Origin: a virus
Lineage: Duplodnaviria > Heunggongvirae > Uroviricota > Caudoviricetes
DNA: 11,544 bases
Virus record (IMG/VR): IMGVR_UViG_2778261419_000002
Reading direction: 5' to 3' (one strand)
Shown here: positions 4,127 through 11,362 of the stretch, piece after piece
How positions within the stretch are numbered: the first letter of the stretch is position 1
How the letters are laid out: every line of letters starts with the position of its first letter
Notes under the pieces: model-generated
What the model saw: the letters and a program-made list of their open reading frames with translations, nothing else
The model's database searches: none
Told to the model about the DNA's origin: nothing
Position numbers and translations under genes: made by a program

Positions 4127-4342
4127 TTACTCTCCCCGTGCAGCCTTACGCTTGTCTTCTTTAATCTTGAAATAAAGGTTTGTCAGATACGTCAGCATGC
4201 CAAATACCAGACTACCCAATACACCTATTGCCGCCCACTGTGAGGGCGTGACTTTATCGAGCAACTGTAAAAACCAGTAGCCAGCACTGCCTGCAGAGGT
4301 GCTGTAGGCGATGCCCGTTGTTAACTTATCCATGGATTTCAT
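4127..4342 (-). CDS. essQ: Class II holin of the phage 21 S type (pinholin), dual-start motif MKSM
   Basis: 71-aa product [71 protein letters not shown] with two TM segments and a charged C-terminus; strong SD GGAGGTGA before ATG at 4342; a second Met at codon 4 gives the classic antiholin/holin dual start. Track ORF extends further upstream without support. Confidence 0.85.
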
Positions 4343-4430
4343 AGCCTCACCTCCGCAGATAACGGATGGTGTACACGGTTTGGTTCGAAGAAGGAAAGAA
4401 GTTACATTAGCGTAAGGCCCGAACATCTAT

Positions 4431-4463
4431 TCAAAAAGAAAAACGCCAGCAATTATTCTGGCG
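4431..4463 (-). terminator. Rho-independent terminator downstream of the AraC-family gene, immediately upstream of the holin
   Basis: Minus strand reads CGCCAG-AATAATTG-CTGGCG followed by TTTTTCTTTTTG. Confidence 0.55.
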
Positions 4464-4532
4464 TAGCTAAAAATATCGTATAATCTTACACTTCAAAAAA
4501 TAACTTTATAAAATGCCATCACATCATATCTT

Positions 4533-5246
4533 CTAAGAAAATCTTGATAAATATTGGTGCGGAGGCACACCAAAATATCCTCTAAAAACACTTACAAAAT
4601 ATGATGCATTGTCATACCCGCATATTCCCGCCACCTTGCCGACAGTATGGTTACTGTAGATCAATAATCTTTGCGCCATCATCATTCGTTCTTCAAGAAT
4701 TAATTTACTAAACGATAATCCTTCGTCTTTTAATTTTCTTTTTAACAAACTCTCGCTCATATATAATCTTGAAGATATATCACAAAGTCTCCATGACGCT
4801 GAGATATCCGAGTGAATAATAGCCTTAACTTTACAACCTAAGCTATTAAGACTTCCGAACAAAAAACTTTGCACTATTTTCTCTGAAGATAAGACAGCAA
4901 GACATGCAAGTGATATTTGATTTCTAACTACATCCACGGTTTTGCTATCACAATTCAAGCATGCAACCAAGTTCTTTAACAATGAAAAATCTTCACATTC
5001 TACTATCAAGTATGACGGATAAAACCTTCTTACAGAAAAAGGTGAGAGTGTGTAGTTTTTAAAGAAATCATTAACTGTTTTCTCCTCAACATCTACGATC
5101 ATTAGATGATCTGTATTTGACGAAAAAAGATCTTTTAAATTGTATTCAATGAGAACAGTATTTCCTTTTTTAAACAAAATATCTTCTTTACCAATTCGGA
5201 CACCAAACGAGTTCAACACCAAAATGATAGAACATATGTATGGCAT
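4533..5246 (-). CDS. AraC/XylS-family transcriptional regulator (AppY/EnvY/GadX-like), AT-rich
   Basis: C-terminal region LLKRKLKDEGLSFSKLILEERMMMAQRLLIYSNHTVGKVAGICGYDNASYFVSVFRGYFGVPP has the two-HTH AraC signature; ATG at 5246 preceded by AGGTGGA, whereas the track start at 5255 is GTG; base composition is visibly more AT-rich than the flanking phage genes. Confidence 0.8.
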   Translation of the reverse strand: MPYICSIILVLNSFGVRIGKEDILFKKGNTVLIEYNLKDLFSSNTDHLMIVDVEEKTVNDFFKNYTLSPFSVRRFYPSYLIVECEDFSLLKNLVACLNCDSKTVDVVRNQISLACLAVLSSEKIVQSFLFGSLNSLGCKVKAIIHSDISASWRLCDISSRLYMSESLLKRKLKDEGLSFSKLILEERMMMAQRLLIYSNHTVGKVAGICGYDNASYFVSVFRGYFGVPPHQYLSRFS

Positions 5247-5652
5247 ATTATCCACCTGATATCATTGGGGTTACACCAGGTAAGTATAGGTGGAAAATCA
5301 ATATTCGCCAGTTCAACAATAAGGAAAATCTCATTGCATCACAACTATAAAACCATGTGTTTAACTCACAAAAAACAAATCATTAAACTAATCTGTTATA
5401 TTATAATATCTGCGTGCAATAATAATATTATATGCTCTTAATATTCACTTGAAATATCTTCATATAAAAACAGATTGAATAAAATCTTTTGGGGCTGGTA
5501 TGTTTACCAACATTAAATTGCATCTCAATGTTTTCTTTAGCGTGAACAGGATTTTTATAAAAACTGACACTATGAGCATCATAGCGTAGTTTTTACGATT
5601 GTAAATATCCTGCATACAGGAACTCATCACTTTCAGATGATATCGCATACAG

Positions 5653-6612
5653 TTAATTCACCATCAGTCTTAGAGCCAGTTCTTCCGGATAGGGATCGAA
5701 GTAATTCTGTGTAAGCAAGTAATCATTAGGATACTCACCCAGATAATGCTTCAGCAGAGTCAACGGCGCAAGAAGAGGCAATGTGCCAAAGCGATAGTTA
5801 AGTATAACCTCGCTCAACTCTTTACGCTGGCGTGTACTTAAGTAATTACTAAAATACCCCTGTATATGCATCAGCACATTCGTGTGATTTTTACGTGATG
5901 CTGGTTTTCTGAGAATCGCCATCAGATTATCACGATACACCTCAAAGTATGATTCAAGGTCCGCCCACTCGTGTATTGCAGCCACAAATGGTCCCATATC
6001 TTTATAGCCTGCCTGGCTATGCGCCAACAACTGAAGCTTATAACGACTATGAAAAGCTAATAACTCTCTTCTTGATAATTTCTCCTTGTAAAGGTGATTG
6101 AGCTCATGCAAAGCAAAAACTCTTTCAATAAAATTCTCACGAAGCACTGGATCATGTAATCGCCCATCCTCTTCAACCGGTAGCCAGGAAAACTTTTCCA
6201 TCAAAGTGCTCGTAAATAGTCCCACTCCATCTTTACGACCTCGATTACCATTTTCATCATAGACACGCACGCGCTCCATGCCACAGCTGGGAGATTTAGC
6301 ACAAACCACAAACCCCGATACATCCTTTAATTTGTCCATATAAGAACGACTAAACTCTGTCATTCTCTCTGTCACATCCTCATTCTGGTCGTGGCTGAAA
6401 CACATCCGTATATTTCCTTGCTTCGAGCGCACAAGTCGTAGAGCAGGACGCGGAACTGGCAGCCCTATAGCCATTTCCGGACATACTGGTCTGAATGTTA
6501 CCCATTCCACTAATTTGTCCATTAAAAAGTCATCTCTTTTGTGACCACCATCAAAACGAACAGCAGAACCGCCCAAACAACCGCTGATCCCAATCACAGG
6601 TTTTTTTATCAT
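5653..6612 (-). CDS. DUF523/DUF1722 fusion protein (TudS-like 2-thiouracil desulfidase family N-domain plus YbgA-like C-domain)
   Basis: 319-aa ORF; N-terminus KPVIGISGCLGGSAVRFDGG ... VCPEMAIGLPVPRP matches the conserved Cys-containing DUF523 motifs as I recall them; strong SD GGGGGAGG before ATG at 6612. Confidence 0.75.
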   Translation of the reverse strand: MIKKPVIGISGCLGGSAVRFDGGHKRDDFLMDKLVEWVTFRPVCPEMAIGLPVPRPALRLVRSKQGNIRMCFSHDQNEDVTERMTEFSRSYMDKLKDVSGFVVCAKSPSCGMERVRVYDENGNRGRKDGVGLFTSTLMEKFSWLPVEEDGRLHDPVLRENFIERVFALHELNHLYKEKLSRRELLAFHSRYKLQLLAHSQAGYKDMGPFVAAIHEWADLESYFEVYRDNLMAILRKPASRKNHTNVLMHIQGYFSNYLSTRQRKELSEVILNYRFGTLPLLAPLTLLKHYLGEYPNDYLLTQNYFDPYPEELALRLMVN

Positions 6613-6804
6613 TTCCTCCCCCTTGACTAATTCATTAACACATAAACTTTGTAGTGCACGGACTAAATTGCCTTTCTGGCTTCATCACTGACAATTTTTC
6701 TGTTATTGACTATTCCTAATATAGTAGGAAAGTTCTTTAAGTGATCGGTCGTACTCATCTATCTTTCATACTTACTCTCAACTATCAAAAGTACAGGATT
6801 TATT

Positions 6805-7329
6805 ATGAAGTTATGGCCTGTGTTGACTGGCATTGCACTCTCTTTCACTCTTATAGCATGTAAGGCCCCGACACCACCTAAAGGTGTGCAGCCGATTACA
6901 AATTTTGACGCCAACCGCTACCTCGGAAAATGGTATGAAATAGCTCGCCTCGAGAACTGGTTCGAACGTGGTCTGGAACAGGTCAGCGCTACTTATGAAA
7001 AACGGAACGACGGAGGGATTCGCGTACTTAACCGTGGATACGATCCAACGAAAAACAAATGGAGCGAGAGCGAAGGTAAAGCATACTTTACTGGAGATAC
7101 TAAAACTGCAGCGTTGAAAGTTTCGTTTTTTGGCCCCTTCTATGGTGGCTATAATGTAATCAAACTGGATGATGAGTATAAGTATGCTCTTGTCAGTGGT
7201 CCGAACAGAGAATACCTATGGATTCTGGCAAGGACCCAAACTATTCCAGATAATGTAAAAGCAGACTATGTGCGTACCGCTCAAAAGTTGGGATTCAATG
7301 TCAATGAACTATTATGGGTTAAACAATAA
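6805..7329 (+). CDS. Bacterial lipocalin Blc-like outer-membrane lipoprotein
   Basis: 174-aa ORF; signal peptide with lipobox LIAC then K at +2; motifs NFDANRYLGKWYEIARLENWFERG and KVSFFGPFYGGYNVI...YLWILART closely parallel E. coli Blc; SD AGGA 6 nt before ATG. Confidence 0.85.
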   Translation: MKLWPVLTGIALSFTLIACKAPTPPKGVQPITNFDANRYLGKWYEIARLENWFERGLEQVSATYEKRNDGGIRVLNRGYDPTKNKWSESEGKAYFTGDTKTAALKVSFFGPFYGGYNVIKLDDEYKYALVSGPNREYLWILARTQTIPDNVKADYVRTAQKLGFNVNELLWVKQ

Positions 7330-7354: not shown

Positions 7355-7384
7355 TAGAAAAAAACCAGCCTTTGGGGAGGCTGG
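7355..7384 (-). terminator. tR'-type rho-independent terminator downstream of Q (also lies just 3' of the convergent blc-like gene)
   Basis: Minus strand reads CCAGCCT-CCCCAA-AGGCTGG followed by TTTTTTTCT; located about 100 nt after the Q stop codon. Confidence 0.6.
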
Positions 7385-7484
7385 CTAAATCAGGAAACAA
7401 GCTGTTATATGATAATAACTACGTTGCGATTCCAACATTTAAAATGTTAGACTAATGAAAATCAGACAGCAACTTTTCCTTTAA
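7385..7484 (-). promoter_or_regulatory. Candidate Q-dependent late promoter (pR'-like) and Q-utilisation region
   Basis: Position between the Q stop and the terminator matches lambdoid pR' architecture; minus strand has TTGCTG-17nt-TAACAT, a possible -35/-10 pair. Assignment is positional, hexamers are weak. Confidence 0.3.
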
Positions 7485-7862
7485 TTATTTCGAACAATCA
7501 GCATCCATCTCCAATCGGAGATCCAACACCATCAGCATGCCCTCCACTACGCCCTCAGCTTTCTGGAGCATCCTGCCAACCCAACAATCAGATCGCCCAT
7601 GCTTACGTGCAAGCGCCATAAAAGTCATGCCGCCGACATAATAGTCCACCAATAAATCATGTAAATCGCTGTTGTTTTTTTTCAGGCGAGCCATACATTC
7701 ACAAATGATCATCGCGTCATCGTCACAGCATTGCGGACGAGATCTTACTTTTGAAGGAATTAATCCCTTAAAACCGGCGGCAATGGACGACCAGGTCACA
7801 TCTTCATGATTATTAGCCGCCCATGCCCCCCAACGCTCAAGAACCATCTGAATATCACGCAT
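7485..7862 (-). CDS. Late-gene antiterminator Q, phage 82 / QuuD-like family
   Basis: Translation from ATG at 7862: [76 protein letters not shown]... matches my recollection of DLP12 QuuD; track start at 7877 is a TTG extension; GGAG upstream of the ATG. Confidence 0.8.
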
Positions 7863-7879
7863 CAACTTACTCCACAAAA

Positions 7880-9275: not shown

Positions 9276-9527
9276 TTATTCTTCTGAAAAAGCAGAAAAG
9301 CCAGCTTTTATTCCGATCTCTTTCAATGCCTGTAATGAAGTGACAAACTCACCGTCGCGCAAGATAAATCCGTCCGTCACTCGGGCATCCACATAATTAA
9401 TTAACGCAGCCCCATTTTTTTGCAAACACACAATGCGGTAATGACTAGCAATATTTCCATTTTCAACGCACACAGCATAGAGGCCATCTTCACAAAAAAT
9501 TTTACGCAGTTCTTCGATGTTCATCAT
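9276..9527 (-). CDS. rem: Small prophage protein, Rem-like (83 aa)
   Basis: 83-aa ORF starting with tandem ATGATG preceded by GGAAGGA; size and position (between hokD and the DUF968 gene) match K-12 Qin rem as I remember it; sequence identity not verifiable here. Confidence 0.5.
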   Translation of the reverse strand: MMNIEELRKIFCEDGLYAVCVENGNIASHYRIVCLQKNGAALINYVDARVTDGFILRDGEFVTSLQALKEIGIKAGFSAFSEE

Positions 9528-9643
9528 CAGAATCCTTCCGGATAATTAGCTCTCCCCTTTAAGGGACCATCCCTCTTATCCCTGCGCGCTACTTAAGTAT
9601 TTTTGATTCTATTCCGGCACCATCCAGAACTTCAAATGCGTTG

Positions 9644-9675
9644 AAAATAAAAACAAAAACCCGCCGAAGCGGGTT
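9644..9675 (-). terminator. Rho-independent terminator of the relB-relE-hokD operon
   Basis: Minus strand reads AACCCGC-TTCG-GCGGGTT followed by TTTTGTTTTTATTTT. Confidence 0.6.
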
Positions 9676-9743
9676 AAGTGCGGGTGCGTTGAGGATGCCT
9701 GCCACATCAGAGGTGGCGAGGGATTTCTCACTCGCCGAGTCTC

Positions 9744-9899
9744 TTACTCCTCAGGTTCGTAAGCTGTGAAGACAGCGACCTCCGTCTGGCCGGTTCGGAT
9801 TCGTACCTCGCAGAGGTCTTTCCTCGTTACCAGTGCCGTCACTATGACGGTTAAACAGATGACGATCAGGGCGATTAACATCGCCTTTTGCTGCTTCAT
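9744..9899 (-). CDS. hokD: Hok-family type I toxin HokD (RelF), 51 aa (absent from the ORF track)
   Basis: Hand translation of minus strand: MKQQKAMLIALIVICLTVIVTALVTRKDLCEVRIRTGQTEVAVFTAYEPEE, a typical Hok single-TM peptide; SD AGGAG upstream of ATG at 9899. Confidence 0.85.
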   Translation of the reverse strand: MKQQKAMLIALIVICLTVIVTALVTRKDLCEVRIRTGQTEVAVFTAYEPEE

Positions 9900-9970
9900 A
9901 GCCTGCTTCTCCTGTCAACGCAAAGCAGAAGTGTCACCTTCGGTGCGAAACAGAGATGTCATGCTTTGGT

Positions 9971-10258
9971 TCAGAGAATGCGTTTGACCGCCTCGCTATA
10001 TACTTCCGAGCGTTCTCTTTTCCCAACAGAAATCACGAAAACGACAACTTTCTCGTCTATAACCTGGTATACAAGGCGATAGCCTGAAGACCGGAGCTTA
10101 ATCTTGTAACAATCAGGCATACCACGGAGCTTGTTTGCTTCAATCCGGGGTGACTCAAGTACTTCAACCAGCTTCTTTTTCAACTGTTCACGTACCGTCG
10201 AGCCCAGCTTTCGCCATTCCTTTAGTGCCCGCTCGTCAAAATCCAGAAAATACGCCAT
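9971..10258 (-). CDS. relE: Type II toxin RelE (ribosome-dependent mRNA endonuclease)
   Basis: 95-aa ORF MAYFLDFDERALKEWRKLGSTVREQLKKKLVEVLESPRIEANKLRGMPDCYKIKLRSSGYRLVYQVIDEKVVVFVISVGKRERSEVYSEAVKRIL; ATG overlaps the relB stop (ATGA). Confidence 0.9.
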   Translation of the reverse strand: MAYFLDFDERALKEWRKLGSTVREQLKKKLVEVLESPRIEANKLRGMPDCYKIKLRSSGYRLVYQVIDEKVVVFVISVGKRERSEVYSEAVKRIL

Positions 10259-10497
10259 CAGAGTTCATCCAGCGTCACACGTACTGGCTTAGGATTACGA
10301 AGCCGTTCTTTCACTATCTCCACAAGTTCAGCATCTTCATCACTCAGGAGTGTCTGTTTGAACGGCAAGCGTTCATTGTCAGCGATATACTCGAGCATGA
10401 GACGAAGCGCTTCAGAAGGAGTTACACCCATTTTTTCAAGCGCGGCGTAAGAACGCGCTTTAAGTTCATCGTCAATACGCAGGTTAATGCTACCCAT
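10258..10497 (-). CDS. relB: Type II antitoxin RelB (RHH repressor)
   Basis: 79-aa ORF MGSINLRIDDELKARSYAALEKMGVTPSEALRLMLEYIADNERLPFKQTLLSDEDAELVEIVKERLRNPKPVRVTLDEL; SD GAGGTG upstream; immediately 5' of relE. Confidence 0.9.
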   Translation of the reverse strand: MGSINLRIDDELKARSYAALEKMGVTPSEALRLMLEYIADNERLPFKQTLLSDEDAELVEIVKERLRNPKPVRVTLDEL

Positions 10498-10508
10498 GTC
10501 TTACACCT

Positions 10509-10534
10509 CTTGTAATTACAAATGTCATTACAAG
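10509..10534 (-). promoter_or_regulatory. relBE operator (relO) inverted repeats overlapping the operon promoter
   Basis: Perfect palindrome TTGTAATTACAA (10510..10521) followed by a related half-palindrome TGTCATTACAAG, directly upstream of the relB start; consistent with RelB/RelE autoregulation sites. Confidence 0.55.
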
Positions 10535-10827
10535 TATCGCACTACAACATGCTTAGGGCAAGTCACGAAGGAAGTCAGAAAGTAGTCGTAAGAACGGTGA
10601 TCACTGTCCGCTTTCTGCCAGGAGCAGCCATTGCTAAGTCCATCCTGTATTGTGCAGGTCAGCTCGTTTTTAAAGAGTCCGGCCATCATCTTACTGGTAC
10701 AGACACCATATACTTTGTGACGGTCAGGCTACATATGCACAACTCAACTTATTCATCTATTTTTTGCTTTAGCATGTCAGTGTTGCTTTCTCGTCGGCGG
10801 GTGAGCGGTGACCTGACCTGTCGATAA
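10522..10827 (+). CDS. ydfV: Doubtful 101-aa ORF (YdfV-like annotation); coding status uncertain
   Basis: Length and position (between relB and flxA, + strand) match the K-12 ydfV annotation as I recall it, but there is no convincing SD, it overlaps the relB promoter/operator, and the translation has no recognisable features. Confidence 0.25.
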   Translation: MSLQVSHYNMLRASHEGSQKVVVRTVITVRFLPGAAIAKSILYCAGQLVFKESGHHLTGTDTIYFVTVRLHMHNSTYSSIFCFSMSVLLSRRRVSGDLTCR

Positions 10828-10979
10828 AGGAACGTAACACGTTTTATGCAACACCCGCATGCGGCAGAAAATTATTGCCGAACGTTTACCCCTGTCAACA
10901 AGCTTTACTTTCTGAGGCGCGCCAGCCCGCGAGGAAAACAATCTGAACATCAAACAATTAATGACACAAGAAATACGAT

Positions 10980-11006
10980 TAAAGATTTTTTTGTTCATGC
11001 CGATAG
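10980..11006 (+). promoter_or_regulatory. Sigma-28 (FliA) class 3 flagellar promoter of flxA
   Basis: TAAAGATT (10980..10987), 11-nt spacer, GCCGATAG (10999..11006), matching the sigma-28 consensus TAAAGTTT-N11-GCCGATAA; SD AAGGAG follows. Confidence 0.6.
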
Positions 11007-11029
11007 TGCTTTTTTAAAAGGAGAAATCT

Positions 11030-11362
11030 ATGTCTGTCACAATTCAGGGAAATACCTCAACCGTTATTTCAAACAACTCCGCCCCGGAAGGAACATCAGA
11101 AATAGCCAAAATCACAAGACAAATTCAGGTGCTGACTGAAAAGCTTGGGAAAATCTCATCGGAAGAGGGGATGACGACACAGCAGAAAAAAGAAATGGCT
11201 GCATTGGTACAGAAGCAAATTGAAAGCCTCTGGGCTCAACTGGAGCAGTTGTTAAGGCAGCAGGCAGAGAAAAAGAATGAAGACGCGACAGTTCAGCCTG
11301 ATAAAAAAGAAGAGAAAAAAGACGATACAAATACCGCTGGCACCATTGATATTTACGTCTAA
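11030..11362 (+). CDS. flxA: FlxA, FliA-regulated protein (110 aa)
   Basis: ORF MSVTIQGNTSTVISNNSAPEGTSEIAKITRQIQVLTEKLGKISSEEGMTTQQKKEMAALVQKQIESLWAQLEQLLRQQAEKKNEDATVQPDKKEEKKDDTNTAGTIDIYV with SD AGGAG and an upstream sigma-28 promoter. Confidence 0.85.
   Translation: MSVTIQGNTSTVISNNSAPEGTSEIAKITRQIQVLTEKLGKISSEEGMTTQQKKEMAALVQKQIESLWAQLEQLLRQQAEKKNEDATVQPDKKEEKKDDTNTAGTIDIYV

Follow-up and report, generated by a model that had tools for sequence, protein, structure and literature searches.

A predicted tRNA 4-thiouridine desulfidase of the RudS family in the Q-to-holin cargo slot of an Escherichia coli lambdoid prophage

What would an iron-sulfur desulfidase do in the late region of a tailed phage? 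The question is raised by an open reading frame in IMG/VR virus record IMGVR_UViG_2778261419_000002 (Caudoviricetes), an 11,544-nucleotide stretch of DNA that is referred to here, at its full length, as the window. The ORF fills positions 5653..6612 exactly and is intact, with an ATG start and a TAA stop, and it encodes a protein of 319 amino acids. We place it on the minus strand, a detail absent from the original prediction, which had been made from the letters of the sequence and without database searches. In an HMM search against Pfam, the N-terminal domain (residues 7-149) matches the full PF04463 profile (1-141/141; E 5.8e-40; 137 bits with a cut-off of 34.7 bits) and the C-terminal domain (residues 192-309) matches the full PF08349 (DUF1722) profile (1-117/117; E 9.4e-40; 136 bits with a cut-off of 22.5 bits). 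PF04463 carries the Pfam name '2-thiouracil desulfurase' and was earlier named DUF523. A DUF523/DUF1722 fusion had been predicted, and both domains are indeed matched well above the cut-offs and are joined in one polypeptide, which is the architecture of the RudS proteins.

Fusions of a TudS domain to DUF1722 constitute the RudS family of [4Fe-4S] desulfidases, which convert 4-thiouridine in tRNA (s4U8) to uridine (Jamontas et al., NAR 2024, PMC11417400). The substrate positions are 8 or 9 of the tRNA, catalysis resides in the TudS domain and binding of the anticodon region in DUF1722, and the mechanism was worked out by mutagenesis of the Pseudomonas putida orthologue (PMC11417400). One of the characterized proteins, RudS_vir, is gp66 of Escherichia phage 1H12 (YP_009909557), for which Cys12, Cys44 and Cys110 are listed. 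E. coli tRNA contained less s4U when any of the tested RudS proteins, among them RudS_vir, was overexpressed, an effect shown neither by TudS on its own nor by E. coli YbgA, which is DUF1722 alone (PMC11417400). RudS_vir was tested by overexpression only, and it was less active on tRNA than RudS_ST when the two proteins were present in similar amounts (PMC11417400). The window protein is 92% identical to 1H12 gp66 over all 319 residues in a gapless alignment with 26 substitutions. On the basis of its sequence, the window ORF very probably encodes a RudS enzyme, a tRNA s4U desulfidase, and it is referred to below as rudS. Both the enzyme and a phage example of it are therefore known, as the family, its tRNA substrate and the 92%-identical phage-borne copy have already been published. 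The original prediction was correct as to the architecture and the Fe-S cysteine ligands, although the precise family is RudS and not TudS. Similarly, its suggestion of tRNA thionucleosides as substrates fits RudS, whereas the modified nucleotide pools that it also offered are unlikely to be the main target of a family whose primary substrates were judged not to be free thiouracils (PMC11417400).

The relationship to the two single-domain families is one of partial likeness. TudS (PDB 6z92 and 6z96) shares the fold and the Fe-S ligands of the window N-terminal domain, but it is a single-domain protein of about 160 residues whose substrates are free 2- and 4-thiouracil and 4-thio-UMP, and the window protein adds DUF1722 to it; at 319 residues with a second domain it also lies outside the size range of stand-alone TudS (a single domain of about 150-170 residues). 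The C-terminal half resembles E. coli YbgA, a stand-alone DUF1722 protein encoded in the ybgA-phr operon, but YbgA lacks a catalytic domain and leaves s4U unaffected (PMC11417400). The match to the YbgA equivalog model (NCBIfam NF007549, PRK10167) reaches 189.1 bits, under its cut-off of 237 bits, and covers residues 161-315 only. The RefSeq name of the window protein is nevertheless 'YbgA family protein', and PHROGs assigns it to phrog_3275, function unknown; both resources under-annotate rudS. The same two domains and the same catalytic set as in the window protein are found in RudS_KT (P. putida PP_0741) and RudS_ST (Salmonella STM1389/ORF319).

The residues needed for catalysis are all in place. 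The cysteine motifs that had been noted are present as GISGC(12)L, PVC(44)PE(46) and KS(107)PS(109)C(110)G, and in a sequence alignment with crystallized TudS (6z92), C12, C44 and C110 fall opposite its cluster ligands Cys10, Cys43 and Cys104. Mutation of E51, R60, S111 or S113 abolished the activity of RudS_KT (PMC11417400); when RudS_KT and RudS_ST residues were mapped onto the window protein by motif and family alignment, these corresponded to E46, R55, S107 and S109. The seven positions (C12, C44, E46, R55, S107, S109 and C110) are invariant among 24 close homologues, and none of the 26 substitutions between RudS_vir and the window protein lies at a validated catalytic position. In a diverse family alignment of 143 sequences, comprising the window protein and 142 full-length representatives at 35-56% identity, the seven positions are retained in 136-142 sequences and the three cysteine ligands in 139-141, with E46, R55, S107 and S109 conserved in at least 95% of the RudS family. 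The sole departure of the phage clade from a family-wide conserved position is S142, which is proline in 136 of the 142 representatives. An AlphaFold model of the window protein, built with a shallow set of 23 homologues, is of moderate quality, with a pLDDT of 69 and a pTM of 0.71; it is an apo model in which the cluster-binding loops score below 50, too low to judge the geometry of the cluster. TudS (6z96) was its only significant fold match in a Foldseek search of the PDB (probability 1.00, TM 0.61 normalized to TudS), and no solved structure in the PDB was matched by the DUF1722 half of the model.

By analogy with the characterized enzymes, we propose that the TudS-type N-terminal domain holds a [4Fe-4S] cluster on the predicted ligands C12, C44 and C110, leaving the fourth iron to bind the sulfur of 4-thiouridine. 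E46, positioned by R55, S107 and S109, would then activate a water molecule so that oxygen replaces sulfur. DUF1722 would dock the anticodon arm of the tRNA, so that the enzyme would act on s4U8 (and s4U9) within intact tRNA instead of on free thiouracil. The expected outcome is that the near-UV-sensitive s4U mark is erased from host tRNA. The catalytic domain is nonetheless TudS-like, and the enzyme could instead serve in TudS-type salvage or detoxification of free 4-thiouracil or 4-thio-UMP pools, with tRNA as a side substrate. Such a role would be in keeping with the phage-clade substitution at the otherwise conserved P142 and with the behaviour of RudS_vir, which had the shortest lag on free 4-thiouracil among all RudS proteins and comparatively low tRNA activity despite good expression (PMC11417400). 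However, no RudS equalled TudS in rescue of a uracil auxotroph, none, the phage protein included, supported growth on 2-thiouracil, free thiouracils were not considered the main substrates of RudS, and tRNA s4U was lowered by RudS_vir and not by stand-alone TudS (PMC11417400). The DUF1722 tRNA-docking domain is, moreover, fully kept and under purifying selection in the phage proteins. We therefore consider a primary role in free-base metabolism unlikely, while the substrate balance may be shifted in the phage clade, as suggested by the short 4-thiouracil lag and the lower tRNA activity of RudS_vir. The short lag also speaks for some free-base activity, to the credit of the earlier substrate idea. 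Erasure of s4U from host tRNA by a RudS enzyme carried on a lambdoid prophage, with the cargo role proposed below, is as a whole the reading that we regard as probable.

The neighbours of rudS identify the setting as a lambdoid late region. The gene order is Q antiterminator, lipocalin (on the opposite strand), RudS, AraC-type regulator and holin. The upstream boundary of the cargo slot is formed by the late-gene antiterminator Q (7485..7877, minus strand; PF06530, 171 bits), which is labelled 'antiterminator Q family protein' in all matched genomes, and the downstream boundary by a P21 S-type holin (4127..4426, minus strand; PF04971, 115.6 bits) annotated as essD. Divergent from rudS is a gene for a Blc-like outer-membrane lipocalin lipoprotein of 174 residues (6805..7329, plus strand; PF08212, 146 bits), which scores 312.6 bits with the NCBIfam Blc subfamily model (cut-off 267). 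Downstream of rudS lies a gene for an AraC/XylS-type, YdeO/GadX-like regulator of about 237-240 residues (4533..5255, minus strand; PF12833 and PF00165). The best NCBIfam match of this protein is YdeO, at a score far under the YdeO cut-off; it belongs to phrog_1450 and is 77% identical to 1H12 gp67. Its gene is very AT-rich (about 31-34% GC), and the cassette as a whole is AT-rich (31-42% GC). A position between a regulator and a lipocalin had been predicted for rudS and is borne out, as is its description as prophage cargo: the cassette is flanked by Q, holin, lysozyme and Rz genes, and a 99.9%-identical region lies in E. coli 13P484A within a Qin-type lambdoid prophage at rspB/ynfA that also carries integrase, replication, head and tail genes. 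The window thus covers the late and lysis genes of such a Qin-type prophage.

The cassette is not confined to this backbone. RudS_vir, likewise of 319 residues with Cys12/44/110, is encoded in a cassette of the same layout (Q, Blc-like lipocalin, RudS, AraC-type regulator and holin), but phage 1H12 has a lambda-like backbone in place of the Qin-type prophage at rspB/ynfA. The order recurs with a 98%-identical allele in a prophage at attLambda near ybhB and with a 92%-identical allele in a DLP12-type element near emrE, so that the cassette is found in three prophage backbones, at the Qin, attLambda and DLP12 sites. It is also present in 68 of 80 IMG/VR viral contigs that encode a RudS 97-100% identical to that of the window. 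This recurrence in several settings indicates that the cassette moves with the lambdoid Q-to-holin module. It occupies the lambdoid Q-to-holin cargo slot and, by its position and its presence in different backbones, it can be regarded as a 'moron'.

The arrangement of candidate signals in and around the cassette suggests how rudS might be expressed. A consensus scan found a pR'-like promoter match that overlaps the Q stop codon (7513->7484, minus strand) and, about 100 nucleotides downstream of Q, a tR'-like intrinsic terminator (7363..7386, minus strand) with a 9-bp stem containing five G-C pairs and a T-run. A promoter match followed by a hairpin after Q would be the layout expected for a lambdoid pR'/tR'. 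A further intrinsic-terminator-like hairpin was found by the same type of scan between the AraC-type and holin genes (4443..4464, minus strand). The rudS and AraC-type genes are on the strand of the late transcript, whereas the lipocalin gene is antisense to it. We therefore picture rudS as a lambdoid moron downstream of Q and the putative pR'/tR', upstream of the holin gene and on the late-transcript strand. Read from consensus motifs alone, the pattern and timing of cassette expression would follow from this position on the late strand after Q, which implies strong rudS transcription by Q-antiterminated read-through upon induction; in a lysogen, low-level transcription might come from a promoter of its own.

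The divergent rudS and lipocalin genes are separated by a spacer of 192 bp (6613..6804), which presumably holds the promoters of both and is conserved among four prophage and phage alleles. It contains an 18-bp palindrome at 6713-6730, TTCCTAATA followed by TAGTAGGAA, which has one match in the window where 0.03 would be expected. The palindrome is repeated exactly in 33 phage or prophage loci of E. coli, whereas the loci from other species lack it. An operator shared with Citrobacter chromosomal spacers was considered and rejected: those spacers cannot be aligned with the phage spacer, and the palindrome is specific to phage loci. At the rudS end, the Shine-Dalgarno-like sequence GGGGGAGG, read from the sequence at 6615..6622 on the minus strand, ends two nucleotides upstream of the ATG. 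The very strong ribosome-binding site claimed for rudS is therefore present as a motif, but it lies only two nucleotides from the start codon and its GGAGG part varies in three sister alleles; an AAGGGG a few bases further upstream is conserved.

A further question is whether rudS is functional cargo at all. It might be a neutral hitch-hiker that is unexpressed or non-functional in E. coli: the cassette is AT-rich, a common property of DNA silenced by H-NS, no clear sigma-70 promoter emerged from the consensus scan in 6613..6804, directly upstream of rudS, and IS insertions are present within the matched cassette region of some genomes. Against this, dN/dS for rudS is 0.14-0.21 between prophage alleles (in the comparison with C. 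sedlakii the synonymous sites are saturated), a pattern which indicates that selection preserves the gene during its carriage by phages. In 1064 complete E. coli genomes the match spans at least 80% of rudS, every catalytic residue is kept, and RudS_vir, at 92% identity, shows activity when produced in E. coli (PMC11417400). Neutral carriage thus appears very improbable.

The cassette has recognizable relatives on enterobacterial chromosomes. A genome scan returned 64 loci, two of which (L064 and L069) are fragments of the same E. coli phage cassette binned into a metagenome-assembled genome. The remaining 62 RudS loci from other species are all from Enterobacterales and encode proteins 66-76% identical to the window RudS. 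A lipocalin homologue 68-80% identical to that of the window (mostly 75-80%) accompanies RudS within the fetched locus in 43 of these 62 cases, usually at a distance of no more than about 1.5 kb. An AraC-type relative, by comparison, is beside RudS in none of the 62 and was found only in the phage fragment L064. In Enterobacter cloacae the lipocalin gene is followed divergently by genes for a MerR/MlrA-like regulator, a transthyretin-like protein and RudS. Citrobacter sedlakii resembles the phage in that its lipocalin and RudS genes are directly divergent. The phage thus has the lipocalin-RudS pair of enterobacterial chromosomes, minus the MerR gene and plus an AT-rich AraC-type gene. A second chromosomal arrangement, seen in Citrobacter, Klebsiella and Pectobacterium, places RudS at the end of an operon in the order SnoaL, SDR, amine oxidase, DUF1365, CFA-synthase-like, DUF2878, an unannotated gene, DUF3833 and RudS. 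The unannotated 175-residue protein of this operon in Citrobacter and Klebsiella was considered as a lipocalin candidate and discarded, as tblastn with the window lipocalin found nothing in the Citrobacter-type operon loci that encode this protein; in L061, the only such operon locus with a lipocalin match, the match is about 5 kb from the 175-residue gene.

The regulators set the phage cassette apart from the characterized chromosomal loci. The genes for RudS_KT and RudS_ST adjoin photolyase genes and LitR or MerR regulators in light-responsive loci (PMC11417400); the window cassette, by contrast, has an AraC-type gene, lacks a MerR-type one and is set in a phage late region. The MerR-type regulator next to Enterobacter RudS has been linked to light-inducible expression (PMC11417400) and is missing from the phage cassette, and a light response of phage rudS can for that reason not be assumed. 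We also considered whether the AraC-type neighbour corresponds to Salmonella SPI-2 ORF242, which lies beside ORF319 (RudS_ST). This identification was rejected: that regulator is described as a MerR-family protein (PMC11417400), the 241-residue neighbour in Enterobacter is MerR/MlrA-like, and the 62 loci have no AraC relative near RudS.

What the phage or its lysogen would gain from erasing s4U is suggested by the photochemistry of the nucleoside. Under near-UV light s4U8 crosslinks to C13, which leads to poor aminoacylation, a burst of ppGpp and a growth delay, and E. coli overexpressing RudS_KT had a UVA growth delay of about 60 min, down from about 105 min (PMC11417400). In a host without a chromosomal RudS, the prophage enzyme would reduce s4U8-C13 photocrosslinking and so shorten the near-UV growth delay and the stringent response, and/or it would keep translation running during induction triggered by sunlight or UV. 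The likely benefit is thus near-UV tolerance for the lysogen, protected translation on induction, or both.

Loss of s4U could also be turned against the host or a competing phage. As a counter-defence or takeover factor, RudS would favour the phage in a phage-host or phage-phage conflict by altering tRNA stability or recognition, for example through degradosome-mediated loss of tRNA-Tyr and tRNA-Ser, or by blunting the stringent response. RudS_KT overexpression roughly halved the abundance of tRNA-Ser and tRNA-Tyr (PMC11417400), and the Q-dependent late-transcript slot in which rudS lies is used by other lambdoid cargo. On the other hand, PADLOC defence models gave no match for RudS, the AraC-type protein or the lipocalin, many Enterobacteriaceae carry the RudS-lipocalin pair as an ordinary module of their chromosomes, and no experimental hint of such a role was found in the literature searched. 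The original prediction had raised phage-host conflict as a speculation; it gains no support here, and we regard a function of this kind as highly unlikely. Protection of host tRNA from near-UV damage remains our preferred role for the gene.

The distribution of rudS in E. coli was wider than expected from the literature, in which E. coli is said to lack TudS and RudS homologues, a statement that underlies an argument contrasting E. coli with Enterobacter (PMC11417400) and that is repeated in a 2026 MMBR review. The laboratory strains used in that work were BL21, HMS174 and DH5-alpha (PMC11417400), and for these the statement is true. It does not hold for the species as a whole: of the 5426 complete E. 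coli genomes scanned, 1136 (21%) carry rudS, nearly always on the chromosome and in three allele groups. An enzyme of this type on a phage had been thought unusual, which neither this prevalence nor the published RudS_vir bears out. The gene itself adds little, the enzymology being settled; what sets it apart is its context, namely regulation without MerR, the conserved lipocalin partner, the AraC-type gene, the late-operon placement and the 21% prevalence in a species said to be without the enzyme. A virus-encoded eraser of a tRNA modification in the Q-to-holin slot of the late operon would be worth testing. The word 'desulfidase' is absent from the text of a 2026 review of tRNA modifications in viral replication.

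Tentatively, near-UV sensitivity in E. coli might be a prophage-determined, strain-variable trait, with Q-dependent RudS erasing s4U8 in lysogens and/or upon sunlight-triggered induction, so that photocrosslinking and the stringent response would be prevented and translation of late genes would go on, and with the lipocalin and the AraC-type regulator belonging to the same light- or envelope-stress conversion module; such a scheme is possible, although we would not put it at better than a modest chance. Since rudS is carried on lambdoid prophages in those 1136 genomes, near-UV growth-delay or s4U experiments in E. coli may depend on the prophage content of the strain used.

The Blc-like outer-membrane lipocalin (window 6805-7329, plus strand) is a conserved partner of RudS, the predicted tRNA 4-thiouridine desulfidase. 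When the gene was compared across the RudS loci of the genome scan, 43 of the 62 loci from other species were found to contain a lipocalin homologue (68-80% identical) within the same fetched locus, mostly no more than ~1.5 kb from RudS, and the two genes are directly divergent both in the phage and in C. sedlakii. The spacer between rudS and the lipocalin gene contains an 18-bp palindrome, TTCCTAATA|TAGTAGGAA (window 6713-6730). Among the loci compared, 33 from E. coli phages or prophages have an identical copy and those of other species have none. We propose this palindrome as a candidate operator. On the strand opposite to the lipocalin gene, 34 nt past its stop codon, lies a hairpin (7363-7386) resembling tR', the lambdoid late terminator downstream of Q. 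Because of this placement, Q-antiterminated late transcription would run antisense across the whole lipocalin gene and could lower its expression during induction.

The AraC/XylS-type regulator (window 4533-5255, minus strand) has YdeO as its top NCBIfam match, far under the cut-off. The gene has a GC content of 31-34% and is preceded by a 397-nt AT-rich leader that includes a candidate promoter (10/12 match, 5605->5578). Among the loci compared, E. coli phages are the only ones in which it accompanies RudS. Its product is the more divergent of the two proteins, with 77-86% identity between alleles compared with 92-98% for RudS. The regulator may be a member of the Psr/AppY-like group of prophage proteins, which rewire acid-resistance and type III secretion system regulons.

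A conserved operon that ends in RudS is present in Citrobacter, Klebsiella, Pectobacterium and Dickeya (L003-L005, L009-L011, L013-L017 and others), in the order SnoaL, SDR, amine oxidase, DUF1365, CFA-synthase-like, DUF2878, an unannotated gene, DUF3833 and RudS. RudS occurs twice in Citrobacter braakii ATCC 51113, once with the operon (L013) and once without it (L012). In Salmonella (L006-L008), a 73% identical copy (protein P0033) is found in a phage remnant, together with an integrase fragment and DUF1367, that directly adjoins ttcA, the tRNA 2-thiocytidine synthase gene. This position may represent an old prophage integration site, and the proximity of two genes related to tRNA thiolation is probably a coincidence.

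Within RudS itself, position 142 (codon near 6187-6189, minus strand) is serine in the phage clade, whereas 136 of 142 diverse RudS representatives in the alignment have proline. S142 immediately precedes the conserved WLPxEEDGR loop, which includes the equivalents of the tRNA-contacting residues E152 and R155 of RudS_KT, the Pseudomonas putida enzyme (PMC11417400). For RudS_vir, the phage 1H12 enzyme, activity on tRNA is reported to be lower and growth on 4-thiouracil to be faster (PMC11417400), differences to which the substitution might be related.

The remaining genes of the window are typical Qin-type content, with ynfO/ydfO-like, gnsB, cspI, Rz, lysozyme and YdfR-like genes on the left and rem, hokD, relE, relB, ydfV and flxA on the right (9276-11362), and nothing out of the ordinary was seen there. 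Several E. coli genomes (among DNA matches H15-H17, H22-H25 and H38) have IS3 or IS1 insertions inside the matched cassette region, and in H38 rudS is split by IS1. Pieces of the E. coli phage cassette in a 'Candidatus Nanosynbacter' MAG bin (L064 and L069), with identities to the window of 92-97% for RudS, 85% for AraC and 97% for the lipocalin, are almost certainly binning contamination. A 403-aa fusion of RudS to a GGDEF domain, represented by a single record (P0002), is probably an annotation or assembly artefact.
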